Shown: positions 18,289 to 58,840 of the stretch, piece after piece | Layout: each line of letters begins with the position of its first letter | Position numbering within the stretch: position 1 is the stretch's first letter | Assembly (NCBI GenBank): GCA_043743535.1 | Contig: JAYTWI010000020.1 | Span: 10,039 to 74,038, forward strand | Source of the DNA: Candidatus Moraniibacteriota bacterium | Lineage (GTDB): Bacteria > Patescibacteriota > Minisyncoccia > Moranbacterales > UBA1568 | DNA length: 64,000 nt | Direction of reading: 5' to 3' | Made by a program: the position numbers and the translations under genes | The notes under the pieces: generated by a model | Databases searched by the model: none | Seen by the model: only the letters and a program-made list of their open reading frames with translations | What the model was told of the DNA's origin: nothing

Positions 18289-18843
18289 CTAGAATGCTAC
18301 TTTCACTGGCTCTTTTTCCACTTCGCCCGCCTCAAAGAAATCACGCTTGGTGAAATTGAAAGCGCCGGCAATGATGTTCGAAGGGAACATATCGATCTTG
18401 TTATTTAATTCCAAGACGTTGCCGTTATAAAAACGACGTGAAGCCTGGATTTTGTTTTCCGTATCCGACAATTCGCGCTGCAACTCCAAGAAATTCTGGT
18501 TGGCTTTGAGATCTGGATAGGCTTCGGCTACGGCAAAGAGACTCTTTAAGGTTTGGGATAGCATATTTTCGGCCTGGGCTTTGTCGGCCGCACTGCCGTT
18601 TGACTGCATAGCAGCTGCCCGCGCCGCCGTCACCTTTTCGAATACCCCGCTCTCGTGAGCGGCATAGCCTTTGACGGTACTGACGAGATTAGGAATCAAA
18701 TCGTAGCGCCGCTTGAGCTGCACATCGATGTCGCTCCACGCTTCGCTCACCCGGTTACGCAAACGTACCAGCGTATTATACATCACCACTACCATGAGCA
18801 CGACGACAGCTAAAATCCCCAATACGATAAACAATCCATTCAT
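18289..18843 (-). CDS. lemA: LemA family protein
   Basis: N-terminal TM plus [33 protein letters not shown], the LemA signature. Confidence 0.9.
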
Positions 18844-18992
18844 AGATGTTGTGTTAATTCTCTAGATACTAACGGGATGAACCATTCACTTTCTTTTTAA
18901 TAGTACCAAATGCCCCTAAAAAAGCAATGCCGCCTCTTTTTGTGCTATACTCGAAGCAAGAAAGTAATATTTTTATCATTAAGTCTATCACT

Positions 18993-19433
18993 ATGGAGGC
19001 TATTCACCCCTATCTGGTCTTCCTTATCCCTATCGCCGTCGGCATCCTCACTCAATTGGCCAAATTCGCTATCTATACTTTCAAGCATGGTTTCAATATC
19101 GAATACGCTTTTACCCACGGCCATATGCCGAGTGCCCATACTTCACTCGTCGTTTCTCTCCTGGTCAGCGTTGCCTACTACGAGGGCGTGCACTCTGGCA
19201 CATTCGCCCTCGCAGCCGTCCTCGCCTTCATCGTCGTCGATGACGCTGCCCGCATCCGTATGTATTTAGGCGACCAGGGCCGTTACCTCAACATGCTAGT
19301 CGAAACGCTCGGTATCGAAAAAGATAAATTCCCCCGTTTGAAGGAGCGTGTTGGCCACCGCGTGAGCGAAGTAATCGGCGGCGCTTTCTTCGGCCTGTTT
19401 CTCTCTATCATTTTCATCCGTCTCTTCTCCTAG
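18993..19433 (+). CDS. divergent PAP2 (DUF212, acid-phosphatase/vanadium-haloperoxidase-related) membrane protein
   Basis: MEAIHPYLVFLIPIAVGILTQLAKF…GHMPSAHTSLVVSL…. Confidence 0.7.
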   Translation: MEAIHPYLVFLIPIAVGILTQLAKFAIYTFKHGFNIEYAFTHGHMPSAHTSLVVSLLVSVAYYEGVHSGTFALAAVLAFIVVDDAARIRMYLGDQGRYLNMLVETLGIEKDKFPRLKERVGHRVSEVIGGAFFGLFLSIIFIRLFS

Positions 19434-19463
19434 CCTTCTCCTCGTCGTAGGAAAAACACCTGA

Positions 19464-19492
19464 GAAAATCTCCCCGTATGGGGAGATTTTTT
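19464..19492. terminator. rho-independent terminator between convergent genes
   Basis: aaaATCTCCCCgtatGGGGAGATttttt. Confidence 0.65.
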
Positions 19493-19497
19493 GCATG

Positions 19498-20754
19498 CTA
19501 CGCCGCCAACTTTTTCAGTTCTTCCTCTATAACTTCCCGCTCATGCCAAGGAATCATGCGGTCGCGGAAAGCTATCGTCTCCTCCGCTCCCTTGCCGGTG
19601 ATGAGCACGATATCACCAATTTCTGCGAGCGCTAGAGCTTTGGCGATAGCCGTCCGCCGGTCAAAGATGCGAAAATATGTTTTGTCTTTTTTCTTACCCA
19701 CTCCTTGTTCGATATCATCGATGATCTGTTCAGGGTCTTCGTAGTACGGATCTTCATTGGTGAGGATAATGATATCGGCGTAACTAGAGGCGATCTCGCC
19801 CATTTGTGGGCGCTTACCACGATCACGTTCACCACAGGCTCCGAAGAGGTGAATAATTTTCGATCCAGGAATCTTCAGAGGCAGGATCGAGGCATAGAGC
19901 TTTTCGAAGGCATCCGGCGTCACTGCGTAATCGATGATGATATCGGCATCGATGTGATTTGGTACCAGCTCCATCCGTCCGGGCACACCCGTCACGCTTT
20001 CCAATGCCTCCTTAGCCACGGCAAAATCAATATCGAGCAAACGTGCTACGCCTAAGGAAGCCAAAGCGTTTTCGATATTAAACAACCCGGGCAACCTGAG
20101 ATAAAAATGCGTGCCATCAACGATAAACTCCGTCCCTTTGAAATCGAGAGAAATATCAGAAGCAAAAAGATGAGCGGCATGATCTTTGACACTATAGAGA
20201 AGTGATGGCTTCTCGGCCGGGGCACAGAAAAATTCTGGGTCTTCCATGTCCAAATTGACCACCGTCTGTTTGGCACGTCGGAAAAGTTTGCACTTGGCCT
20301 CGCGATACCGGGCCATCGTCTCGTGATAGTCCAAATGCTCGCGCGTCACATTGGTCATAACGGCGATAGCGTAGGGTATCCCCCACACTCGGTTCTGGTC
20401 GAGGGCGTGCGATGAAGTTTCGAGCACGGCGTATTGACATCCAGAGGCCACAGCCTCTCGCAAAAATTGTTGCAACCGCCAGGGCGATGGCGTGGTGAAT
20501 TTGGAGGCATTGACCCAATGCTTTTCGCCGATTTGAAAATTAATAGTTGAGGCCATAGCCACCTTTTTTCCGGCCCGTTCCAAAATACGGGTGATAAATT
20601 GTGTGGTAGTGGTCTTGCCATTGGTGCCCGTCACTCCGATTACTTGCAAACGACGAGCGGGGGAACCATACCAAATACTGGCTAAAACAGCGTTCGCCAG
20701 ATGATAGTAATTCTTCACCAAGCGTGGTGTCAGTTGTGAGAGGAAACGTTTCAT
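19498..20754 (-). CDS. Mur ligase family protein (MurE-like, lacks N-terminal domain)
   Basis: GVTGTNGKTTTTQFI…TTPSPWRLQQ…ETSSHAL…TNVTREHLDYH. Start overlaps the stop of the upstream RT gene (ATGA). Confidence 0.75.
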   Translation of the reverse strand: MKRFLSQLTPRLVKNYYHLANAVLASIWYGSPARRLQVIGVTGTNGKTTTTQFITRILERAGKKVAMASTINFQIGEKHWVNASKFTTPSPWRLQQFLREAVASGCQYAVLETSSHALDQNRVWGIPYAIAVMTNVTREHLDYHETMARYREAKCKLFRRAKQTVVNLDMEDPEFFCAPAEKPSLLYSVKDHAAHLFASDISLDFKGTEFIVDGTHFYLRLPGLFNIENALASLGVARLLDIDFAVAKEALESVTGVPGRMELVPNHIDADIIIDYAVTPDAFEKLYASILPLKIPGSKIIHLFGACGERDRGKRPQMGEIASSYADIIILTNEDPYYEDPEQIIDDIEQGVGKKKDKTYFRIFDRRTAIAKALALAEIGDIVLITGKGAEETIAFRDRMIPWHEREVIEEELKKLAA

Positions 20755-21842
20755 AGTGTTTTCATAGTAGGATTTTCAACATCCCATTTTTGAACAATCT
20801 CACTCATTAAACTATACCCATTCCCATGTGAAAGCAAGCCCACATACGACGCTAGCACCTCTTTCTTGCCCTTTGTTTCTACCAATCTCCGTAGCATACG
20901 TTTCTTGGTGACCGTCCGTAAGACTTGGTGTCTGGAGAAATGCACCCACCCCAGGAAATCCACTCCTGAGGACAGCGTCTTGATCGAGACCTTGTCCGGA
21001 TGAAGCTTCAGTCTCAGATTGAGTTGTAAAAACGCGTCTACCAATGTAAGTATCTTCTTCAATGCTTCTTTGTCCTGTGAAAATATAACAAAATCATCGG
21101 CATAGCGGATATAGTATTTAGCTTTCACCTGGTGCTTCATGAACTGGTCGAATTCATTGAGATAAATATTGATGAGGAGTTGCGAAGTCAGATTACCCAG
21201 AGGTAAACCAATACCTGTCATGCTAGGGTCAAAGCTACCAATAACCTTCTCGAGAAGCCACAAGACGTCCACGTCAAAGATACGTCGCTTCAAAATACTC
21301 ATGAGCACTGTCTGGTTGACAGAGGCAAAGCATTTTCGAATATCACCTTTGAGTATCCAAACAGTCTTGGTATGATTTTTGGAAGTCCGCCTGCCAAGGA
21401 CCTCGAAGCGACTCAGGGCTTTATACACACCCTTCTTTTTCCGACAAGAATATGAATCCGCAATAAAGGTATCGTCAAAAAAAGGATACAGAATACGGTA
21501 AATAGCATGGTGCAAGAGACGATCCCTGACCGAGGCCTTGTGAATATGGCGGGGCTTGGGGTCGGAGATGCGAAAAGCGTGGTAAGAACTGTGCGTGTAG
21601 GTTTTATTTGTCAGGTCACCATGCAAAGCAAAAATATTATCCATCAGGTGCAGTTCAAACTCTTGTACATCTTGCTTCTTGGTCTTTCCTCTCACGAATT
21701 CTTTCCAGGCTTCGAGGAGATTTTCGGGAGAGATGGTATGATGATAAGAAAGTTCTAACTTCTTTTTTTCTCTGTATGCTTCATCAAATTCCCCCCCCCC
21801 GAAGCTCTTGCCCCTTTTACAGAAGCTAAAGGAAGGATACAC
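20751..21842 (-). CDS. diversity-generating retroelement reverse transcriptase
   Basis: N-terminal …ENLLEAW…VRDRLLHHAIY… (DGR-RT hallmark). RT motifs ILKGDIRKCF, GLPLGNLTSQLLINIYLNEFD, YIRYADDFVIF (YADD), LHPDKVSI. Adjacent TR/VR pair. Confidence 0.9.
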   Translation of the reverse strand: MYPSFSFCKRGKSFGGGEFDEAYREKKKLELSYHHTISPENLLEAWKEFVRGKTKKQDVQEFELHLMDNIFALHGDLTNKTYTHSSYHAFRISDPKPRHIHKASVRDRLLHHAIYRILYPFFDDTFIADSYSCRKKKGVYKALSRFEVLGRRTSKNHTKTVWILKGDIRKCFASVNQTVLMSILKRRIFDVDVLWLLEKVIGSFDPSMTGIGLPLGNLTSQLLINIYLNEFDQFMKHQVKAKYYIRYADDFVIFSQDKEALKKILTLVDAFLQLNLRLKLHPDKVSIKTLSSGVDFLGWVHFSRHQVLRTVTKKRMLRRLVETKGKKEVLASYVGLLSHGNGYSLMSEIVQKWDVENPTMKTL

Positions 21843-22161
21843 ATTGTGGTATAGTTATATCTTTACTGTGCCAAAAATTCATCGACATTCCCTTGGTCAG
21901 AAAATTGATAGCCTTTTTGTAGAAACCATAGAGGCAGTTGCAGCGGCCAGCTTTTCTTCGGGTACGGACAAACTTCCCTACATACGACACTCCATCAAAA
22001 AAATGGATACTCTCAAACTTCTCTTGACGATTTTGTGGGAATTGAAGTCGCTGGATAACAAAAAGTATCTCGCTCTGTCAGTAAAGCTCGATGAAATAGG
22101 CAGGATGCTTGGTGGTTGGCAGGGACAAGTCTTGAAAAAACAAAACTCCTCACATGCATGA
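21808..22161 (+). CDS. Avd-like accessory protein (four-helix-bundle / 23S-rRNA-IVS-protein family), putative
   Basis: …VPKIHRHSLGQKIDS…YIRHSIKKMDTLKLLLTILWELKSL…LSVKLDEIGRMLGGW follows the Avd/IVS-protein pattern. Opposite strand to the RT; the called 5' ends overlap by 35 nt. Confidence 0.6.
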   Translation: MPLLQKLKEGYTLWYSYIFTVPKIHRHSLGQKIDSLFVETIEAVAAASFSSGTDKLPYIRHSIKKMDTLKLLLTILWELKSLDNKKYLALSVKLDEIGRMLGGWQGQVLKKQNSSHA

Positions 22162-22181
22162 GAGGAGAAAAGAAGAGAGTA

Positions 22182-22305
22182 GCGACGCGCAGAGCCGGGT
22201 TGTTGTCGTTCCAGTCATTGTCGAGCCAGTTCCAGTTGATCACCACCTTGTCGCCGTTCTCGACGAGATACGGAACGTAGAGGTTGCCATCGCGGTTCTG
22301 CACAA
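22182..22305 (-). repeat. DGR template repeat (TR)
   Basis: 124 bp aligned to 22653..22776. 14 mismatches, every one at a plus-strand T (a minus-strand A) of this copy. Asn (AAC) codons are enriched. Confidence 0.9.
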
Positions 22306-22646
22306 ATATACACAGCGCCTTCCATACCACCACCCCTCGAGTACTCTTGGGGTTGTATCGTATTCGGTATCTTAAATACCATAGCACTGTATACCAAGTA
22401 TCTTCATTTTTAGTGAAGTGTCTACATACACCACTCTACCCGAAACCGTAATCGAAGGTATTCTCAATGTATGGATACTGGATTCGGCCGCAGACAGTCG
22501 TAACCATCTGCAAGATGCGCCTACTACCACTGTCAGTATATCAAAGGGTGAAAAAATGAAAACCCCGCACTACCGTTCGGTAAAATGCGGGGTCGAAGGA
22601 CTAAGAATCAAGGGTCTAAAAGACCCAAAGTACAAAGTCCGAAGTA

Positions 22647-23312
22647 CTAACTTGCGACGCGCAGAGCCGGGTTGAGGCCGTCCCAGTCAAAGCCGAGCCA
22701 GTACCAGTAGATCACCACCTTGCCGCCGCGCTCGACGAGATACGGAACGTAGAGGCGGCCATCGCGGTTCTGCACAACATCTTTCCAGGCAAAGACTGCC
22801 TTGCCACGGAAGTGTTGACGGAAGACTTCGATGCCGAGCTTCTGGATCTCCTCCAGATCGCGCAGTGCGAGACACGTCGGGAGAATATCACTCTCCCTGA
22901 TGTACTGGTACAGCGCCTTGCCACCAATGACGCCGCCGTTCTCTTGCGTAGGGTGAAGCCAGGGCTTCACCCGATCGAAGCGGTATTCAACCGTGTCCGT
23001 ACGGTCAAACTCCTGATGCAGACGCTTCTTCAGCCATTCTGGGTATATCCCCTTGATGGCGTAGTTGACACGGAAGGTCTGATGCATGGTCTCGCGAGCA
23101 ACTTCGACGATTTTCTTGTCGAGCGGACAGAGACCGAGTATCCCGCGGAATTCATCCCGATCCACTTCTTTGATGTTGCCATCGAAGAGATCAGACAACA
23201 GACCGGAGGTGTAAAGCAACTGGAGCTGTTCCAATTGCGGATCCTTCTGCCCAACAAATGCAAGCAGGTGGGTGGCTTGCTTAAACGATCCATCACTCAT
23301 GGTATTCTCCAT
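22647..23312 (-). CDS. DGR target protein with C-terminal variable region (CLec/FGE-like fold presumed)
   Basis: C-terminus …VQNRDGRLYVPYLVERGGKVVIYWYWLGFDWDGLNPALRVAS matches the translated TR (…NWNWLDNDWNDNNPALRVA). No signal peptide. Confidence 0.85.
   Translation of the reverse strand: MENTMSDGSFKQATHLLAFVGQKDPQLEQLQLLYTSGLLSDLFDGNIKEVDRDEFRGILGLCPLDKKIVEVARETMHQTFRVNYAIKGIYPEWLKKRLHQEFDRTDTVEYRFDRVKPWLHPTQENGGVIGGKALYQYIRESDILPTCLALRDLEEIQKLGIEVFRQHFRGKAVFAWKDVVQNRDGRLYVPYLVERGGKVVIYWYWLGFDWDGLNPALRVAS
22653..22776 (-). repeat. DGR variable repeat (VR)
   Basis: Partner of the TR. Differs only at positions corresponding to template adenines. Confidence 0.9.
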
Positions 23313-23598
23313 TGAGCGCTACTCCTTACGGGTAGCTGCTACAGCTCTCGAGGATTCGAGTTTGCCATAGCCCCCTATCTTTTTTATATCATCATACAAA
23401 TCGTGTCACGGTCGTGATAAAATTTATATATACAAAAAAACATGGGGCTCTGGCAAAAACGTGTATTTTAACGAACTGTATATTATACACCTAAAAAGAA
23501 GAGGGTCAAGCGCAGTGTCAGACTTTTACTTAAGATAAGCGGTTTTTTCAGGGAATAAAAACTTGTTTGAGGATTTGTGGGGACCGCTGCAGGGAATA

Positions 23599-24759
23599 TT
23601 ACGCTGCCACAGGTGGTGCTGCCATTTTAGCGACAAAGGTGACGACGAGTATCAGGGTAGCAACAATCGGCAGGAAAAAATAATACTGGGGATGAGCGAG
23701 CGAGAGCAGGATACCACCAAACACTACCAACCGTGCTAGCACCGTTGGTATTTCCCGCACAATAACAAATCCTTCCTCGTCATCCCCTTTGACCGCCTTA
23801 TAAATAACACTGGAATACGAAACCAAGAATGCTGTCATCGTGAAAGAGGCTACCAGACTAATCAGATAGGCAGACCACTGATCGGCCACAAAAATTCTCG
23901 CGATCGAGAGCAGGATGAGGCCGAAAGCCGACCACAGTACCAGTCGATGATCAGAACGATCAACTTGTTTCCCGATCAAGAGCGTGAAGATGACCGCGCC
24001 GATAGTTGCCAGACTGCCGACAATACCTGGTACAGCCAAAGAGCCGATGATGAGAAAAATATAAATGCCCCAATACCATTCTGACTCTTCGATGATATTG
24101 TCCAGTCCCTCGAGGAAAAAGAGCAGTTTGCGGCGCTTGATTTTTTGCCAGGTCTGTCGAAAATCAAAGAAAACGCTTGCTTCGCTCACGCTGATACCCG
24201 CCAGAGGTAAATAAGAAACAGCCACTCCGACCATAGCGATAAGAAACGTTGGCCAGAAGCCAACTGCATATACCAATGCCGCCCCGCAAAGCGGACCAAC
24301 AATGGAGAAAAATTTCGGCAGAGCAAAAAAACGAGCGAGATCGCTCCCCATCTTATCGAAATCAGCATTCTTGATCAAGAGAATGTTAAGCGGGATCCAG
24401 TAAAAGAAGCTGGCTGCCCCGCCGACCACGGCAATAATCTGAATAGGAATGGCAAATGAGGGCAACAGAAAGAGGAGGAGAAAATAGAGCATCTCAAGAG
24501 GATAATTAAATTTGAAGACCCTGATGAGCCCAAAGTGTTGAATAAAGAGCGGGATAAACGTCAGGGAGAGGAAAAGCCCCGAGAGATGGAGTATGACAAA
24601 GTAACCGATTACCTCTGTAAGAGAATGCCCCTCCGTAAAAAAATAAATCGGCACGTAGACACTGACAAATGACAGAGCAATACCGCGGATGGTATGCGAA
24701 ATGAATACCCGATAAATCTGGCGCTTTCCCTCAAGATGAAATATATTCGCAAACGACAT
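23599..24759 (-). CDS. multi-pass membrane transporter (MFS-like), hypothetical
   Basis: About 11 predicted TM helices. No diagnostic motif. Confidence 0.5.
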   Translation of the reverse strand: MSFANIFHLEGKRQIYRVFISHTIRGIALSFVSVYVPIYFFTEGHSLTEVIGYFVILHLSGLFLSLTFIPLFIQHFGLIRVFKFNYPLEMLYFLLLFLLPSFAIPIQIIAVVGGAASFFYWIPLNILLIKNADFDKMGSDLARFFALPKFFSIVGPLCGAALVYAVGFWPTFLIAMVGVAVSYLPLAGISVSEASVFFDFRQTWQKIKRRKLLFFLEGLDNIIEESEWYWGIYIFLIIGSLAVPGIVGSLATIGAVIFTLLIGKQVDRSDHRLVLWSAFGLILLSIARIFVADQWSAYLISLVASFTMTAFLVSYSSVIYKAVKGDDEEGFVIVREIPTVLARLVVFGGILLSLAHPQYYFFLPIVATLILVVTFVAKMAAPPVAA

Positions 24760-24766
24760 AGTGTTC

Positions 24767-25771
24767 CTACCTAAGTATTTTTTTGCGCATCTGGCCTACC
24801 GCACTGAGGAAACGATACAGTGTGTACGTCATGTACGAGAGCACGATATCATAGGTACCTGGAAAAAACGTGGTGGCTGTTTGGGGCGAAAATCCCAATT
24901 TGAATGTAGTGATGCCGCGCCAAGAGTTACTTACGGAGTCCGTCCGGACACCGCCGAAATCATAACGCGTAGCGCCGCGATCCTTAGCGTATTTGATCTC
25001 TTCCCATTGGAGAAGGTACGGCGCCATCACGTCTCGGTGTTCATCACCTGATCCACCGTGCAGGTACGTCGCTGTCTTCCCATAGATGATGAGGAGGTTG
25101 GCAGCGATGACATTTCCATCATACTCCGCCACAAAGAGCTGACACATTTCCTCCGGCAAGTGAGAAAAAAAATGTTCATAGTACGCGCGTGGATGAGCGG
25201 CAATATTTTTTCGCCCCGTAGTCGCCCCCACCAATGCAAAAAAAGCATCTTGATATTTTTTTTCTCGCGAAATAAAAACTTTGACACCCCGCTTTTCTGC
25301 CAGTCGGACATTGTAGCGCGTTTTTCCCTTCATCTCTGCAAGTAAGGTATCCTCATCGGCCGTAATATCGATAACAAATATTTCTCGTGGCTGTATATCA
25401 CGCGATGCCTTCGCTACTCTATATGGTACACTCTTTCTGATAACTTCCAAAATTTCTTCTGTCTCTGGCTCGATCCGTATCCACCGGCAACTTCTCTCGC
25501 GCGCTCTCCGAATGAGTTCTTGGATGTTATTCTTGATTCCTGTTTCATCATGTATATTTCCTACAATTGGTCCTCTCGGAAAATACAGATACTTCCCGAT
25601 GAGTGGCAGCGTATGGACGATGCCACTGCCCCAAAAACCCTCTCCTGCCACATGTACCGTTGTGCGCGCCATGGATTCCTGAAAATGGCGCCACGCTTCT
25701 GATTGGAGCATGCCACCATCTTTGCTGCCGAACAAAATTTCTTCTCCATCCATAGAAATAGTCACTATCAC
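24767..25771 (-). CDS. FemAB-family peptidoglycan aminoacyltransferase
   Basis: …KTATYLHGGSGDEHRDVMAPYLLQWEEIKYAKDRGATRYDFGG… is the FemAB signature. Confidence 0.8.
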   Translation of the reverse strand: MIVTISMDGEEILFGSKDGGMLQSEAWRHFQESMARTTVHVAGEGFWGSGIVHTLPLIGKYLYFPRGPIVGNIHDETGIKNNIQELIRRARERSCRWIRIEPETEEILEVIRKSVPYRVAKASRDIQPREIFVIDITADEDTLLAEMKGKTRYNVRLAEKRGVKVFISREKKYQDAFFALVGATTGRKNIAAHPRAYYEHFFSHLPEEMCQLFVAEYDGNVIAANLLIIYGKTATYLHGGSGDEHRDVMAPYLLQWEEIKYAKDRGATRYDFGGVRTDSVSNSWRGITTFKLGFSPQTATTFFPGTYDIVLSYMTYTLYRFLSAVGQMRKKILR

Positions 25772-26340
25772 TTCTTGCCCAGATTTTTCAAGGCCTCACG
25801 AATACGTTTGCCCACATCTTTGATATCCATAGGCACGAGCTTCAGGGCTTCACGAGCCTGCGAAACACTATACCCCAAAGAAGTCAGTGCTTCGAGCGCA
25901 TCCTGTCCGGCGGCGGCATCACCCTGGTCATCTCCGGCTACGGCTTCCACTTTGTTTTGTAGCTCAATGATGACTTTTTCTGCTGTTTTCTTGCCTACCC
26001 CCGAAACACGGGTCAGGATACTCGCATCCCTGTTAACGATAGCCATACGGATGGTTTTGACGTCAGCGATGGAGAGAATAGACAGTCCAGCCTTGGGGCC
26101 GATGCCCGAAACAGAAATGAGGAGCTGAAACATATGGAGTTCTTCCTCATTGAGAAAGCCATATAAAGCGAGTGTGTCCTCGCGCACATGGGTATAAATA
26201 TGAAGCAAAACTTCGCCCTGCCCGGCCAATTTCCCCAGAGTATAGGCCGAAACCGATACCAAATAGCCGACACCACAAACCATGAGGATAACAGCATTCC
26301 CCCGCAGACCGGCAATTTTCCCTTCCAACTGAGCAATCAT
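25768..26340 (-). CDS. ruvA: Holliday junction DNA helicase RuvA
   Basis: MIAQLEGKI…GVGYLVSVS…LYGF…ELHMFQLLISVSGIGPKAGLSILS. Confidence 0.9.
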   Translation of the reverse strand: MIAQLEGKIAGLRGNAVILMVCGVGYLVSVSAYTLGKLAGQGEVLLHIYTHVREDTLALYGFLNEEELHMFQLLISVSGIGPKAGLSILSIADVKTIRMAIVNRDASILTRVSGVGKKTAEKVIIELQNKVEAVAGDDQGDAAAGQDALEALTSLGYSVSQAREALKLVPMDIKDVGKRIREALKNLGKK

Positions 26341-26526
26341 AGGCATATAAAAATGAAAATTCAAACCAAAAAACAGTATTCTTCACACGTTGCCATTGTT
26401 CCACTATTCTACCATTTATGCCTTTTTCTTGCCAAAAATCGAGGGACGTGCTAAAAATGAAGGGTCTCATTTCCTGTGTTTTTGGCCATTCATTTTTTTG
26501 GATTTTTAAATTTTGATTCTACTATC

Positions 26527-26796
26527 ATGCCGATCAAGAAATCTGCCAAGAAGTACATGCGCGTCACGGCCACCAACACCGAGCGAAACAAAATCGTCAA
26601 AGGTGTGGTGAAAAGCGCCATCAAAAAAACTCGCGAAGCAGTCACTGCCGGTAACATCGACGAGGCCAAGGAGTGGCTCAAAAAAGCAAGCAAGTCTCTC
26701 GACAAAGCTGCTCAAAAAAAAGTGATCAAGAAAAACACCGCTGCTCGCAAAAAGTCCCGTCTCAATACTTTGGTCAAAGGAGCCGTCAAAAAATAG
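26527..26796 (+). CDS. rpsT: 30S ribosomal protein S20
   Basis: MPIKKSAKKYMRV…NKIVKGVVKSAIKK…DKAAQKKVIKKNTAARKKSRL. Confidence 0.9.
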   Translation: MPIKKSAKKYMRVTATNTERNKIVKGVVKSAIKKTREAVTAGNIDEAKEWLKKASKSLDKAAQKKVIKKNTAARKKSRLNTLVKGAVKK

Positions 26797-36038: not shown

Positions 36039-39000
36039 TCACTTCAATACACCGACATCCTCTGGCGAGATAAAGAAGCAGTTTTGAGTGATACTATACC
36101 CATTAAAGTCAGTCTCCCTCTGGGGCAGACCAGTAACTCTATTTTTCGTAGCAAATTCAGGATTCCTTTTCAAAGTAGCCAGGAAATTAAAGACGGCGTT
36201 TCTATTGGAGGCACCCCCCCCACGGTGGTCATCAATAACGATAGCGACCTGGGCGTCTTTCTTATCAGCGACCTCCCTCACATACTGTACTATTTTTCGT
36301 ACAAAGTCAGAAACCTTGAGTTGATTGATGGTGTTTTCAATTGGATTTAAACCACGAATAACCATGAGTTTTTGACCACTGGCTGTGGTGGCCTCAATAA
36401 CGACGCAAGCCCCTGCCAATCGCTCTTCTTTTTCTTTGCCAGGATTTTGCTTGAAGACAAGCGCTGTAAAATTGGGAAATTTCTCGGCGATTGAACCATA
36501 CTTGGATGCCCAACAAGCATCCGCAATATGGCCAGAGAGCTCCATGAGCGTACCTCGACTCGGTAGGATTTCAAATGGTGTTTTCCCCTTTGTCTCAACA
36601 TTAGTAGCATCCCGCACGGCTTTAGCAAGTGTCGCCGTGTCTAAGAGATCATCAAACTTCTTGGCAACACTGGTAGTGGAAAAATATGTCCTAAGAGTCT
36701 CCTGGTTAGTAATATGATCAACAAACTCAATCACCTTAGAAACATTGGCCACCGAAATATTTGCTTCCGCGTCCTGCACATCAAATTCCATCCAGGAAGG
36801 ATTCTTGCGCAACGCTAAGGAAAAAACAGCTTCCTGAATAATAGGCCGACATCCTTTGATATCGAGGAGTATATCCATATTTGTCTGGAGATCCTGCACT
36901 GAGCGTATGTTCACTGTTTCTAGCCCAGCAACTTTCTCTTCCAAATTCTGTCTAGCTTTTTCATTGGTAAGTAATGGGAGTTTTGCTCGATAAGTATCAA
37001 TGGTCTGAGTAGTTATAACTCGCAACTTCTCTGCATACTGAGAAAAAACCTTGCTACCTTCTAAACTTTTTTGAGCTTCTCCAAGGCTTCGCAATAATGC
37101 TATGTATTTACTAACAACGTCTTCTGTCCACTGATGCTCTGTCACTGCCTTGGCATCCAAAGTCTGGATATCTACTCTCTTGGCCACAAATGCGGCGTCC
37201 GGCTTCATCGGTTCTATGGCCAATACTCTTTTAAGTTCCCCTATGGTCTTTTCACCAAAGCCAGCTTCATCAAAGCGAACATACTTCTTAAAATAGTCTA
37301 ACAGAATCGGATGAGCAAATACTCGTTCCTTGTCAATTACATCATTCCCCCAGTCCACTCGCTCCTTGCGTAATAATTGTAAAAATTTATTCACAAGCTC
37401 TTTACCTGTCGCTTTAAACCGAATCTGGGGGATTTCAACTTCTTCTGTTTCTGCGATGAAGCCTTCCTTAGATAGAACCTCTAAATCATCAATCCGGGTA
37501 GCAAAAGGAAATATAGCTTTACCAATCACTACTTTTTCTTCTTTACTTAATAAAAAATTTCTACTGACACTAGTAATTTTATTGATAAGATCTTTATCCC
37601 CGAACTTACACAGAGCTACCGTGCCTTCTACAACAGCCTCTCGGATCTCTGGCGATTTCAGGACTGTTTCTGGAAGAGAGAATACTTGAATAATTTCGAG
37701 GGCATCATAGAAATCATGAGATTTGATTCGTGCAAGCATACCTTCTCTGGCGGCTTTCTGGATCTCTGGCGATTTCAGGACTGTTTCTGGAAGAGAGATT
37801 GCTTTAATGATTGCACGGACTCTCGGGGTAAAATTATTACTACTACCTTTCCTGAGTTGAACTGCTATACTCTCTCCTGCGACTTCGAAAATGACAGCTT
37901 CAGAGAAATGAAAGGTTTTGGCGATGTTGAGAGCCTGACTAACATTGATATCATCAGAACTGAGTTGTGCCACCATGTTCTCTTTTGCTGCTTGTTGAAT
38001 TTCTGGTAATTTGAGGACCGCCTGGGGCGGAGAGAACTCATAAATAATAGAAATGGCACTATCTGCATTGCCAGTCTGGAGATATGTCATCATAGCCTCT
38101 CTTGCGAGTTTGCGGACGACGGCTTCAGAAAAAATATGGCACGTAGTGGCAATTCTTCTGGCAATGCAGATATTGCCATTTCTGAGTTGTGCAGCCACTC
38201 CTTCTCTTGCAGCTTGTTGAATTTCTGGTAATCCCATGGCTGTTTTTGGGAGAGAAAAAGTCTTAATAGTTGTGGGGACAGTGCCTATATTGCCATTTCT
38301 GAGTTGTGCCACCATGTTCTCTTTTGCAGCTTGTTGAATTTCTGGTAATCCGATAAAAGTTTTTGGGAGAGCGAATACGTCTATAATTTTAAGAGCTCTT
38401 GCAATAGAATTATTGTCTGTAAACTTGAGCTGTGTGGCCAGTCCTTCACTGGCAGCTTGATAAATGAGTGCTTCAGGAAGCTTGAAGGTCTCGATAAATC
38501 GAGGAACAAAATCAGCCTCATCCCCATAACTTTGGCCTTTGCTTAAAATATCAACAAGTCCCGCCCTAGCTATGGTTTGCACATTATTTGATTGAATCTG
38601 CCTGCCCGAAAGTGAAAAAGTTTCAACAAACGCCATTGCTGACCACCATTCACCCGCATTCAGTTTCTCAAGCATAGCCTGGCTTGCCAGAGATCGAAGT
38701 GGGGATGTGTCTGAAGATTTAAAAGCGCCCAATTTCTGCAAATCTTTAATCTGAAATAAAAATTCAGTAAGCGCCCCGTTACGAACAGCCATCATTTGCC
38801 TCATAATACACTCCGTACTCAACTTGTCGATATCCAAAAAACTCTTGTCGGTATATTGCAAAATATGAACAAGTGCGCGAAACGAAAGAGAAGTATTTTG
38901 AATGTGCTTTGCTGATTCCTGGGAGAGAGGGATAGTACCCGGGAGAATACTTCTCAGTGAGGAGTCGTCCTCAAATACTTCATCAATATTTTTTATGTTG

Positions 39001-40661
39001 ACAATGAAATCACTCACCAGATCAATCCCTGTGTGCTCTTTTTCCATCATCAACATTTGTGCCTCTTTGACAGCACTACCCTCACCATCCCACCGACCCA
39101 CTAAACCAGCCCACTGGTAAATTGCTTTCTGATTACGCGAACTGACTTCCTTTTTTGACTCCTCAAAAGCCCGGCTATAATCTCCATTGATTTCCGGTTG
39201 ACTTAAAAACTTTTGTGTTTTCGTTACTGCTAAAATATCAATCGACGATGCCCCTGCGGTCATAAGCTTGTGTGCCCGTTTGAGATCACCAAAAGGCACA
39301 TCATTAATAAAATCAACCCTAAATTCCCGAGTAACATCTGTTCTGTCTCCTGAGAAATGCCAGTGCAAGTCAAGTGCCATTTGCGCTAAGCTCTTATGAC
39401 GTTCGTTCTTTTGTTCTTGTTCCGACAATTCAGCTCGCAATAAACTACCGAGAAACTTTTTGAGATTTGCGCTTTGAATACGAGCATGTTCATACTGTTT
39501 AAAGGTCGTTTCCAGCTGTTTCAGTGCTTGAGTGTATTCACATTGTATGGATGAAAGCTGGGCCTCACGCTCTTCATCGGGTAAATTCCTTTTCTCTACA
39601 CGGGAAACTTCCCGCTGTTTTTTAGCATCCAGTCTATCTATTTCTCTCTGAGTATCTTCGCGGAATTTTTTGCTACGGCTTTCCAGTTCTGAATCAATAA
39701 ATTCCCCCATTTGTTCATCATCAGCACCTTCCGTGAGAAAGGTAATCTGCTTCTTCAATACATAAGCTCTCTCAGCGTATTTTGACACTCCTGATTTTCC
39801 CTCAAATCTTCCAATGTTGTGAAGGTCAACCCCGTTTATTTTCTGGCGCATCCCACGCAACTGCGCTTTTACTCCCTCTCCCAACTGTGCCCAAGCAATT
39901 GACTCCGCAAAACTCCCAATATAAGGAGAGCTTGGTCCTCTACTAGGATTAAACTTGGCCGCCTCAGCTACAATATCCGCCGCCCGAAGGATGACCTTAT
40001 GCTCTATTTCACCTTGAGATCCGTTTTTTGCCTCGAAATCCTTTCTTATTTTCTGATATAAATCTTGGAGAACGATATAATCATCATAATTCTGATCATT
40101 GAATCGGTTATTGAAAGTCTTCTGCTCCTGTCCTTTGGATTTATCTTTTTCAAGTGCTTTATATGCAATCCGAGCAATAGCATATTCCGGTGTTCCCTTC
40201 ATAAGCACTCGCCTCAAGTCTCGTTCGAGGCCTAATCGTACCTCATAAGGAGAAGCATAAATGATCTGAGGTTTTGTTTTATCATCACCACTATGACCAT
40301 AGTAGGTAGTATGATCTGGCTCTATTTTGGTAATTCTTCCGCTCAGTAACTGCCTATAGAAGTCTAGTCGCTTCTCAATATATTGATGCGCCTCTGGATT
40401 TATTTCCTCTACTATCCTTATTCCATCCTGAATGCCCAGAGTAGACAACTTATGAAAAACGAGTTTGAAATTGCTACTATCAAATGTTTCCTCATCTTCT
40501 ACATCAGAAAACATTCCCTTTTCAACACGATCGATTTGCGCAAAAAGAGTGGTGTATTCTGGGTCATCGTATACTTGCGCCACAAGCTCGGCTTGTGGAC
40601 TTTCCTCATGTAATTTTTTTATATCCGGAGAGGCTACACTCTCAAAATTTTTTAGTCGCAT
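36039..40661 (-). CDS. giant (1540 aa) intracellular tandem-repeat protein, function unknown
   Basis: No signal peptide or TM. Central array of 36-38-aa repeats (FSLPxTxxxLPEIQQAAxExxxAQLRxGN…). Unrecognised N- and C-terminal domains. Confidence 0.7.
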   Translation of the reverse strand: MRLKNFESVASPDIKKLHEESPQAELVAQVYDDPEYTTLFAQIDRVEKGMFSDVEDEETFDSSNFKLVFHKLSTLGIQDGIRIVEEINPEAHQYIEKRLDFYRQLLSGRITKIEPDHTTYYGHSGDDKTKPQIIYASPYEVRLGLERDLRRVLMKGTPEYAIARIAYKALEKDKSKGQEQKTFNNRFNDQNYDDYIVLQDLYQKIRKDFEAKNGSQGEIEHKVILRAADIVAEAAKFNPSRGPSSPYIGSFAESIAWAQLGEGVKAQLRGMRQKINGVDLHNIGRFEGKSGVSKYAERAYVLKKQITFLTEGADDEQMGEFIDSELESRSKKFREDTQREIDRLDAKKQREVSRVEKRNLPDEEREAQLSSIQCEYTQALKQLETTFKQYEHARIQSANLKKFLGSLLRAELSEQEQKNERHKSLAQMALDLHWHFSGDRTDVTREFRVDFINDVPFGDLKRAHKLMTAGASSIDILAVTKTQKFLSQPEINGDYSRAFEESKKEVSSRNQKAIYQWAGLVGRWDGEGSAVKEAQMLMMEKEHTGIDLVSDFIVNIKNIDEVFEDDSSLRSILPGTIPLSQESAKHIQNTSLSFRALVHILQYTDKSFLDIDKLSTECIMRQMMAVRNGALTEFLFQIKDLQKLGAFKSSDTSPLRSLASQAMLEKLNAGEWWSAMAFVETFSLSGRQIQSNNVQTIARAGLVDILSKGQSYGDEADFVPRFIETFKLPEALIYQAASEGLATQLKFTDNNSIARALKIIDVFALPKTFIGLPEIQQAAKENMVAQLRNGNIGTVPTTIKTFSLPKTAMGLPEIQQAAREGVAAQLRNGNICIARRIATTCHIFSEAVVRKLAREAMMTYLQTGNADSAISIIYEFSPPQAVLKLPEIQQAAKENMVAQLSSDDINVSQALNIAKTFHFSEAVIFEVAGESIAVQLRKGSSNNFTPRVRAIIKAISLPETVLKSPEIQKAAREGMLARIKSHDFYDALEIIQVFSLPETVLKSPEIREAVVEGTVALCKFGDKDLINKITSVSRNFLLSKEEKVVIGKAIFPFATRIDDLEVLSKEGFIAETEEVEIPQIRFKATGKELVNKFLQLLRKERVDWGNDVIDKERVFAHPILLDYFKKYVRFDEAGFGEKTIGELKRVLAIEPMKPDAAFVAKRVDIQTLDAKAVTEHQWTEDVVSKYIALLRSLGEAQKSLEGSKVFSQYAEKLRVITTQTIDTYRAKLPLLTNEKARQNLEEKVAGLETVNIRSVQDLQTNMDILLDIKGCRPIIQEAVFSLALRKNPSWMEFDVQDAEANISVANVSKVIEFVDHITNQETLRTYFSTTSVAKKFDDLLDTATLAKAVRDATNVETKGKTPFEILPSRGTLMELSGHIADACWASKYGSIAEKFPNFTALVFKQNPGKEKEERLAGACVVIEATTASGQKLMVIRGLNPIENTINQLKVSDFVRKIVQYVREVADKKDAQVAIVIDDHRGGGASNRNAVFNFLATLKRNPEFATKNRVTGLPQRETDFNGYSITQNCFFISPEDVGVLK
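37600..38500 (-). repeat. intragenic tandem DNA repeats (period about 111-114 bp) encoding the 36-38-aa repeat array
   Basis: Near-identical stretches recur, e.g. tctggcgatttcaggactgtttctggaagagag at about 37642 and 37768. gcagcttgttgaatttctggtaat occurs at least three times. Confidence 0.5.
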
Positions 40662-58501: not shown

Positions 58502-58840
58502 CTAGCGCTCTTGTGCTATTTTTATCTCAACAATTGCCTCCGTCCCTGCTAGGGTATTGATTTTCCTTTTCAAACTTTCACGCTGTAACCACACCTCATT
58601 TCCCCACAGAGAGCTTTTTGGCGCCAGAAAAAGTTGTTTTTCTTTATAAAAAACTGGTATGATATTTTCTCCACCACGCACACCGTATTCTTCCACTAAA
58701 ACTTTCTTGCAGATATAAAACAAGGTCTTTTCGTCGAGCAAAACACTCCCCCCCTCAGCGAGAGTTCTTTTTTTTGGCAACAATTCTTTCAAAGTCCTCA
58801 TACTTCTCCTGATTTCTAAACCTCGATCATACTGATTCAA
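58502..58840 (-). CDS. DUF721 (DciA-like) protein
   Basis: Small basic protein immediately downstream of dnaN. …LFYICKKVLVEEYG…IIPVFYKEKQLFLAPKSSLWGNEV…. Confidence 0.45.
   Translation of the reverse strand: MNQYDRGLEIRRSMRTLKELLPKKRTLAEGGSVLLDEKTLFYICKKVLVEEYGVRGGENIIPVFYKEKQLFLAPKSSLWGNEVWLQRESLKRKINTLAGTEAIVEIKIAQER

Follow-up and report, generated by a model that had tools for sequence, protein, structure and literature searches.

A probable CPR-type diversity-generating retroelement with a polymorphic repeat tract at the avd/RT junction in Candidatus Moraniibacteriota

The window, a 64,000-nt stretch of a Candidatus Moraniibacteriota contig, contains between positions 20751 and 23312 a reverse transcriptase (RT) gene, an avd accessory gene on the opposite strand, a template repeat (TR) and a target gene that ends in a variable repeat (VR), together with a set of predicted RNA and DNA elements (Table 1). 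The flanking genes are a Mur ligase, MFS and FemAB, and the element is chromosomal with no phage context. An earlier note on this sequence had proposed a complete diversity-generating retroelement (DGR), and all four of its components (RT, Avd, TR/VR pair, target) hold. The motifs VRDRLLHHA and YADD (residues 247-250), which it had taken as DGR-specific, are present in the RT but are not diagnostic; the diagnostic motif is LGNLTSQ at residues 215-221, which corresponds to the [I/V/L]GxxxSQ signature of DGR RTs, rather than QGxxxSP (PMC7826257). The closest solved relative of the RT was 8ub7_A (E = 1e-39, 140 bits), which from the length of the entry and the entry count we infer to be Bordetella bRT, with group II intron RTs scoring no more than 82 bits. 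Identical 363-aa RT products have been called independently in public assemblies. Comparison with defence-system RTs (DRT, retron, Abi) gave only generic RT-domain similarity, far under the curated cutoffs, and we rejected such an assignment.

Table 1. Features of the element and its surroundings, by position in the window.
Feature	Position	Strand	Evidence or remark
RT, DGR type, 363 aa, GTG start	20751..21842	-	Pfam RVT_1 E = 2e-24
Simple-sequence repeat, C10 on plus strand (G10 in RT sense)	21791..21800	.	
avd accessory gene, 117 aa, TTG start	21808..22161	+	Pfam PF22296 bAvd, 48.8 bits
Candidate duplex, 3' strand (cPRT-Stop-like)	22110..22123	-	antisense to avd codons LGGWQG
U-tract (TTTTGTTTTTT) after stem-loop	22135..22145	-	GTTTT invariant across 35 loci
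Conserved 9-bp stem-loop (CTCCTCTCA-TGCA-TGTGAGGAG), 3' of TR	22146..22167	-	covariation and RNAalifold
Pyrimidine-rich linker, consensus AACTCTCTTCATTTC, between TR and stem-loop	22168..22181	-	near-invariant, 35 non-redundant loci
TR, 124 nt	22182..22305	-	repeat search and base-by-base comparison
TR 3' 21 nt, IMH*-like GC-rich tail	22182..22202	-	
Conserved non-coding G-rich block upstream of TR (TGGTGGTATGGAAGG), candidate duplex 5' strand	22318..22332	-	
GC-rich hairpin and U-tract after target gene, terminator-like	22550..22592	-	folding
Interrupted hairpin, 6 nt after target stop codon	22598..22640	-	z = -3.6
Target (variable protein) gene, 221 aa	22647..23312	-	
VR	22654..22777	-	encodes target residues ~179-220
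VR 3' 21 nt, IMH-like tail	22654..22674	-	
Candidate sigma-70-like promoter, TTGACC-16-TATAAT, upstream of target	23482..23509	-	11/12 matches, consensus match alone

The avd gene runs head-to-head with the RT gene, as described before, and the 5' ends of the two overlap by 35 nt. Its product scored above the Pfam bAvd cutoff of 40 and reached 62.7 bits against NCBIfam DivGenRetAVD, under the curated cutoff of 80; PDB contained no sequence match. Synonymous sites in avd showed no consistent excess of constraint over those in the RT gene of the kind expected from an antisense functional RNA.

The TR and VR are offset by 472 nt. The TR coordinates and 124-nt length given earlier were correct, while the VR had been placed one nucleotide off, at 22653-22776. 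As previously reported the repeats differ at 14 positions, and at 14/14 the TR has a T on the plus strand and so an A on the coding strand, with none of the 94 non-A TR positions differing (hypergeometric p = 1.3e-10, for 30 A among 124 TR bases). On the coding strand the TR-to-VR changes are A>G (6), A>T (5) and A>C (3). The TR adenines occupy first (11) and second (19) but never third codon positions, with AAC present eight times and AAT once, and all 10 altered VR codons (10/10) change the amino acid; the translations quoted in the earlier note (TR ...NWNWLDNDWNDNNPAL..., VR ...YWYWLGFDWDGLNPAL...) proved accurate. Fourteen of the 30 TR adenines (47%) are changed in the VR, which matches the ~50% misincorporation reported for bRT, and we counted this in favour of a DGR. 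The GC-rich 3' end that had been noted in both repeats is a 21-nt tail, CAACCCGGCTCTGCGCGTCGC, identical in the two copies. An A-tolerant scan and blastn detected no further VRs in the window.

The target protein has a helical, poorly conserved N-terminus followed by a conserved domain of ~145 aa (residues 76-221), and belongs to a family of 477 proteins and 1,216 clusters. Its sequence had no match at E <= 0.01 in Pfam and NCBIfam, including to CLec, FGE-sulfatase or DUF1566 families, and a profile of the family found nothing below E = 0.07 among PDB chains. The domain was modelled with a pLDDT of 96.4. We tentatively predict that the target carries a small, divergent C-type-lectin-like binding domain, for which the closest known proteins would be the CLec variable proteins of other DGRs, Mtd (1yu0), TvpA (2y3c) and AvpA (5ioo). 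That this VR-bearing domain is instead a distinct, previously unclassified non-CLec fold, serving CPR DGRs as a variable scaffold, is the less likely alternative but one of appreciable weight. The absence of a signal peptide had been noted before and agrees with the lack of any hydrophobic stretch in our analysis (Kyte-Doolittle means over 19 residues peaked at 0.62), and the protein is probably cytoplasmic.

We also examined the non-coding sequences around the two repeats. The stem-loop 3' of the TR starts ~15 nt after it and extends across the avd stop codon (22159-22161), which is on the opposite strand. Across the alignment 92.4% of cells were paired and 8/9 pairs had compensatory changes, values reached by 0/500 shuffles, with slid controls at 39-65%, and RNAalifold independently recovered the same 9-bp structure. 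Stem-loops of 9 bp that bind Avd lie just 3' of the TR in 207/278 Avd-containing DGRs (Handa et al., bioRxiv 10.1101/2023.10.23.563531), and the position and conservation of ours are consistent with a putative counterpart. On the TR strand, the stem-loop and the U-tract that follows it look like an intrinsic terminator; the TR RNA may therefore end at the U-tract, in which case a Bordetella-like spacer of 140 nt could not be accommodated. The cPRT-Stop of DGR RNA is a ~13-bp duplex that joins sequence upstream of the TR to sequence downstream of it, and the candidate duplex strands in Table 1 share a GGUGG:CCACC core (5 bp) that is paired in 26-32/33 loci and was also obtained with RNAalifold. 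This duplex was 71% paired, in a structure derived from the window itself, with only three pairs showing any double change, and global RNAduplex z-scores for pairing of upstream with downstream sequence were uninformative. As the core is conserved but almost without covariation, we regard it as a hint only and do not claim a cPRT-Stop.

On the VR side, the minus strand of 22500-22660, which includes the terminator-like hairpin after the target gene, folds at -53.8 kcal/mol (z = -4.6). Here an IMH-like GC-rich boundary is accompanied by a flanking hairpin, both predicted from sequence and folding, and the inner stem of that hairpin is GGGTCT-TTT-AGACCC (22612-22626). By analogy, it would be the counterpart of the Bordetella phage stem-loop after the IMH. 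Hairpins of similar geometry flank the VR in most related loci, as judged by per-sequence folds only, since anchoring was too inconsistent for formal covariation. No Rfam families were matched in the region.

CPR bacteria are the richest known reservoir of DGRs. We consider the window element to be very probably an intact DGR of the CPR/Patescibacteria type with architecture B3, that is, target-VR, TR, inverted avd and RT. Weighing against this reading are the Avd score under the NCBIfam cutoff and its lack of a PDB match, the identity of IMH and IMH* in the two repeats, the possible end of the TR RNA at the U-tract, the near-absence of covariation in the candidate duplex and the tentative status of the CLec-like fold. 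The avd gene, in reverse orientation, is the sole accessory gene and stands between TR and RT; 90% of CPR DGRs have been reported to follow this layout, TR-(avd)-RT (Wu et al. 2018, PMC5758913), so the opposite-strand avd mentioned earlier is the standard arrangement. The element has the same gene order, with avd inverted, as the CPR DGRs of that study and DGR clade 2 (Roux et al. 2021, PMC8144416), the related loci are in CPR hosts (Moranii-, Nomura- and Saccharibacteria, Paceibacterota and others), the target is small with no transmembrane segment or recognisable domain, its VR is C-terminal, and we found no essential difference. The CPR DGR literature that we examined makes no mention of the overlap between stem-loop and avd or of the junction repeat tract described below.

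The Bordetella phage BPP-1 DGR shares with the window element A-specific TR-to-VR transfer, an RT that has the [I/V/L]GxxxSQ motif and Avd as its partner, an IMH-like tail rich in GC, a hairpin that follows the VR and a ~9-bp stem-loop just 3' of the TR. In contrast to its order, mtd-avd-TR-brt, avd is here inverted and downstream of the TR, so that any spacer RNA would be antisense to avd. Furthermore, the window element differs in having a U-tract after the stem-loop and in that its IMH does not depart from IMH* anywhere in the repeat; discrimination between donor and recipient would then have to reside in the flanks. The BPP-1 target is a phage tail fibre, whereas ours is an apparently cytoplasmic protein of 221 aa in a chromosomal element. 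Homology to the Bordetella phage system, the paradigm for the mechanism, suggests that a complex of RT and Avd would bind a non-coding RNA containing the TR and also bearing the conserved pyrimidine-rich linker and the stem-loop downstream, possibly with Avd contacting the latter. The RT would then copy the TR into cDNA, misincorporating at template adenines, and this cDNA would take the place of the VR in the 3' end of the target gene, with the common GC-rich IMH-like tail and the hairpin after the VR as guides. Such homing could recode up to ~20 residues, giving roughly 5.6e17 theoretical protein variants.

The cassette is common to about 48 related loci, with the order target(+)/TR(+)/avd(-)/RT(+), including the inverted avd, kept in ~40. 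TR/VR pairs with a bias to A are present in 48 loci, and in most of these all mismatches (100%) are at A. The comparison of related strains suggested earlier could be made with sister loci: L021 and L025 match completely in the TR and in flanks of 300 nt, and their VRs differ, with 11/11 differences at A-templated sites, and L017 and L115 have identical TRs with 13/13 VR differences at such sites. Since VR differences between loci with identical TRs are confined to A sites, the clade is active in nature.

At the junction of avd and RT, the G10 tract lies within RT codons 15-18, 8 nt upstream of the avd TTG start. Only G10 leaves the RT reading frame open, while G8, G9, G11 and G12 lead to a stop after 18-29 aa, and there is no alternative in-frame RT start before residue 50; slippage by one unit in either direction would therefore abolish full-length RT. 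A simple-sequence repeat (SSR) is found at the equivalent position in 32/33 related loci, an enrichment of ~800-fold, as poly-G(7-13), (TG)4-15 or (GGCT)7, and its length differs among loci with identical flanks in three sets. In most relatives it lies in a divergent intergenic region of ~40-70 nt, where a change in length would alter promoter or UTR spacing. Apparent OFF states were seen in L025 and L073, both with an out-of-frame G9, and in L021, where RT codon 38 is an in-frame stop. Poly-G/C tracts in genes and promoters of Campylobacter and Neisseria are known examples of SSR-mediated phase variation (PMC4965091, PMC3639595). As in such contingency loci, the tract in the window clade has at least 7 units and lies at a gene 5' end or in a divergent promoter region, its position is kept while its motif is not, and its length differs between near-identical strains; unlike them, its hosts are uncultured CPR bacteria, and any switching is predicted from sequence. 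In the DGR literature searched we found nothing comparable. To our knowledge, control of a DGR by an SSR tract has never been reported.

Three other explanations bear on these results. The TR and VR could be an ordinary partial gene duplication, with A-only differences arising by chance or from a non-DGR mutational bias, but beyond the existence of a repeat nothing favours this, and it is at odds with the codon-position design of the TR adenines and with the adjacent DGR-type RT and Avd; the statistical restriction to A, the equivalent pattern in 48 independent loci and the VR turnover between sister loci effectively refute it. A DGR that was recently inactivated or is silent, for example by being switched off or through loss of a host factor, would fit the apparent OFF states in L025, L073 and L021, the 18 orphan members of the target family that have no adjacent RT or Avd, and the only other assembly of the window locus (L130, found through a search with the neighbouring Mur ligase), which is 100% identical and shows no polymorphism. 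Against this, the RT frame is intact with its catalytic motifs present and G10 in frame, the avd frame is intact, the RNA and DNA cis elements are all present, and the lack of any divergence at the 94 non-A positions argues for very recent homing. We hold a silent cassette to be improbable, and the window copy may be active at present.

For the junction repeat the balance is much closer. The G10 tract and its counterparts could be fixed and functional, for instance as a G-rich, SD-like ribosome-binding site for the RT or as non-B-DNA in the divergent promoter region, or could be neutral slippage that is tolerated, in which case the differences in length would be assembly errors. An SD-like role would fit ~10 loci in which the G-run is followed at 10-13 nt by the RT start codon, and short-read assemblies often err in the length of homopolymers; we give such a fixed or neutral tract slightly less than even odds. 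It sits poorly, however, with the unrelated (TG) and (GGCT) motifs at the same position, which indicate that slipperiness rather than sequence is conserved, and with the strong enrichment of repeats at the site, the location of the tract inside the only open RT frame in the window sub-clade and the three identical-flank sets that differ in repeat length. That the SSR gives stochastic on/off control of the diversification machinery in this CPR clade is a tentative proposal, which we put forward while leaning slightly against it.

We regard the window element as typical of a DGR class already known, apart from one regulatory feature that is possibly new. As a DGR it adds little, given the known richness of CPR bacteria and the standard layout, and the value of the comparative set lies in the target family, the stem-loop in inverted-avd cassettes and the junction repeat tract. 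The target family (~1,200 clusters) is large and unnamed, and its high-confidence model would lend itself to curation as a novel, highly divergent domain of CLec-like type. That cassettes with an inverted avd keep a stem-loop 3' of the TR, in overlap with the avd stop, constrains models of RNA production by B3 DGRs. The junction repeat is conserved in position and polymorphic in length, and a slippage switch is a simple hypothesis for DGR regulation; if true, it would be a contingency locus gating a targeted hypermutator, and would set a population-level limit on the cost of continuous mutagenesis.

The element at 20751-23312 is a standard CPR DGR. The earlier note had called it a complete diversity-generating retroelement, and this is essentially right: the stretch holds a reverse transcriptase (RT), a gene of the bAvd family, a template repeat (TR) and variable repeat (VR) with A-restricted differences, and a VR-bearing target gene. 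Genes flanking the element are housekeeping and encode a Mur ligase, an MFS-like protein and FemAB.

Features of the DGR and its surroundings
Feature	Position	Strand	Basis or remark
Reverse transcriptase ORF	20751-21842	-	Pfam RVT_1, E = 2e-24
C10 run (G10 in RT sense)	21791-21800		Within RT codons 15-18, 8 nt upstream of the avd TTG start
avd, bAvd-family protein	21808-22161	+	Pfam 48.8 bits, cutoff 40
Linker, stem-loop and U-tract region	22135-22181	-	Directly 3' of TR
9-bp stem-loop	22146-22167	-	Overlaps avd stop codon (22159-22161) on the other strand
Pyrimidine-rich linker, near-invariant	3' of TR		Consensus AACTCTCTTCATTTC
TR	22182-22305	-	Direct-repeat search, 124 nt
GC-rich hairpin and U-tract	22550-22592	-	After the interrupted hairpin
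Interrupted hairpin	22598-22640	-	z = -3.6
Target ORF, 221 aa	22647-23312	-	VR at extreme C-terminus
VR	22654-22777	-	Direct-repeat search, 124 nt

TR and VR form the sole strong direct repeat of the region (89% identity), and no further VR was found in the 64-kb window. The TR position in the earlier note stands while that of the VR had been set 1 nt low; the rest of that observation was accurate. Compared base by base, all 14 mismatches fall at a plus-strand T of the TR, which is an A on the target-coding minus strand, and none of the 94 non-A positions of the TR differs from the VR. With 30 A in 124 bases, the probability of 14 random differences all falling at A is p = 1.3e-10, which bears out the claim that the differences are strictly adenine-specific. 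By target codon position, 11 TR adenines lie at position 1, 19 at position 2 and none at position 3; read in this frame the TR has eight AAC codons and one AAT, and the amino acid differs at each of the ten altered codons. The 3' 21 nt of TR and VR are identical (CAACCCGGCTCTGCGCGTCGC) and the flanks part immediately past ...CGC. Because the GC-rich tails of VR and TR (IMH and IMH*) are the same within the repeat, their discrimination would have to use the flanks, a situation noted previously by Wu et al. (PMC5758913). The VR is followed in order by the stop codon, an interrupted hairpin and a GC-rich hairpin with a U-tract; hairpins of similar geometry follow the VR in most relatives, and that of the window resembles the stem-loop after the IMH of Bordetella phage.

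The best solved relative of the RT is 8ub7_A (328 aa, nine entries, E = 1e-39, 140 bits), which we take to belong to the Bordetella bRT cryo-EM series, with group II intron RTs behind it at no more than 82 bits. As a defence-system RT it gave generic matches only, far under the cutoffs. Its motifs are YADD and LGNLTSQ, the latter fitting the [I/V/L]GxxxSQ signature that DGR RTs have where group II and retroviral RTs have QGxxxSP (PMC7826257). The avd gene lies between TR and RT, on the strand opposite to the RT as had been claimed, and its product matches Pfam bAvd above cutoff and NCBIfam DivGenRetAVD at 62.7 bits, under the cutoff of 80. In the automated annotation of L130, an assembly of the same locus (window 18692-26754), avd was skipped and a spurious 73-aa ORF called across the TR, so that avd is missing from the protein collection.

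The 221-aa target has no Pfam or NCBIfam match and no hydrophobic segment. Its family comprises at least 477 proteins (1,216 clusters at 50% identity), almost all of 190-240 aa, and lacks any Pfam domain save in P0156 (292 aa), where a ClpX-type C4 zinc finger (PF06689, E = 1e-17) lies N-terminal to the variable domain; this fusion may point to a role in the cytoplasm, perhaps tied to proteolysis. Two further members, P0123 (792 aa) and P0124 (658 aa), each carry three tandem variable-protein domains, beyond which Pfam returned nothing significant. The predicted fold of this unnamed family is borderline CLec-like.

A linker, a 9-bp stem-loop and an invariant GUUUU(G)UUUU tract come in this order after the TR, both in the window and in 34 non-redundant relatives. 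When the alignment was anchored by the conserved flanks alone, the stem-loop was 92.4% paired with compensatory changes at eight of nine pairs; none of 500 shuffles matched any measure, slid controls were 39-65% paired, and RNAalifold independently gave the same stem. Handa et al. (bioRxiv 10.1101/2023.10.23.563531) describe putative Avd-binding stem-loops, most commonly of 9 bp, in 207 of 278 DGRs that contain Avd, placed just 3' of the TR, and the stem-loop of the window is most likely one of these. The stem-loop and U-tract together may also act as a terminator of the TR transcript. For the cPRT-Stop, a second published element in which sequences from either side of the TR form a duplex, there is a hint here: 22318-22332 pairs with 22110-22123, itself antisense to avd codons LGGWQG, and the core GGUGG:CCACC is conserved and found by RNAalifold too, with covariation essentially absent.

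Of 33 non-redundant loci (among related loci L010-L123), 32 have a simple-sequence repeat at the same position, either between the avd and RT 5' ends or inside their overlap, as poly-G of 7-13 nt (26 loci), (TG)4-15 (five) or (GGCT)7 (one). The ~100-nt junction zones hold 38 such repeats and the other 770,750 nt six, an enrichment of ~800-fold. Tract length varies across flanks that are 99-100% identical (32 nt in L017 vs 30 nt in L064; G10 in L021 vs G9 in L025 and L073), and L066 and L067 carry G11 and G13. In the window, the 363-aa RT ORF is open with G10 only, as G8, G9, G11 and G12 lead to a stop after 18-29 aa, and there is no alternative in-frame start ahead of residue 50. A conserved repeat position with variable motif and polymorphic length is the hallmark of contingency loci; we found no link between DGRs and such repeats in the literature searched.

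Judged from sequence, it is possible, if somewhat short of probable, that the junction repeat acts as an on/off switch of the DGR. Instead, the tract may be a G-rich, SD-like element, a non-B-DNA promoter element or an assembly error. Most relatives have a conserved ATG (MSRIQF.H.Y.DIIS...) 10-50 nt downstream from the repeat, which leaves the tract intergenic. Elsewhere in the window, C-runs of at least 7 nt occur solely at 36214-36221 and 58748-58754, and the former, a C8 inside a 1,540-aa ORF (36039-40661, minus strand), could be another slippage-prone site. The window Avd is 90-93% identical to those of L014, L015 and L038, whose RTs are merely 62-64% identical; its RT is nearest to those of L021 and L025 (73-75%), whose Avd is ~70% identical. 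This mosaic suggests recombination near the junction repeat.

Genome and metagenome scans gave 124 loci, with CPR/Patescibacteria MAGs as the source of nearly all. Using tblastn with the window's three proteins, ~40 showed the same layout of target(+), TR(+), avd(-) and RT(+), and 48 had a TR/VR pair of ~125 nt, with mismatches 100% at TR adenines in most. CPR elements have been placed in DGR clade 2, with targets without transmembrane or conserved domains (Roux et al., PMC8144416); since CPR DGR surveys report the same arrangement, the inverted avd and signal-less target are typical rather than exceptional. Between L021 and L025 the TRs and 300-nt upstream flanks are identical, but the VRs show 11 differences, every one at an A-templated position. 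The 13 VR differences between L017/L064 and L115 are likewise all A-templated; at the level of sequence, these sister loci are direct evidence of DGR activity. The only other assembly of the window locus, L130 (Logan SRR23617269), matches it over 8 kb with 100% identity, and we therefore infer that the window copy is active from its intactness and zero non-A divergence. Near-identical sisters look 'off' differently, L021 by an in-frame stop at RT codon 38 and L025/L073 by an out-of-frame G9.

Eighteen family members (L001/L008, L012, L013, L022, L032, L039, L042-L047, L049, L051, L052, L087, L106 and L116) have no RT, Avd or TR within flanks of at least 3 kb on each side. Several of these orphans (L013, L039 and L046) retain an IMH-like nucleotide tail and hairpin and may be diversified in trans; others have degenerate C-termini. 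L003 (6001-8903) carries a pair of paralogous target genes whose flanks are duplicated, as repeats of 159 and 174 nt, and a TR after the second gene only; all contigs of this locus end within the DGR, which suggests that assembly breaks inside it. Eight loci with this otherwise CPR-restricted cassette (L013, L014, L021, L023, L025, L048, L050 and L055) come from MAGs labelled 'uncultured Bdellovibrionales', with Avd reaching 90% identity to that of the window, and the label may reflect mis-binning or mislabelling.

The specialist interest of this element lies in its unnamed target family, in a stem-loop that persists 3' of the TR despite the inverted avd and, foremost, in the junction repeat.
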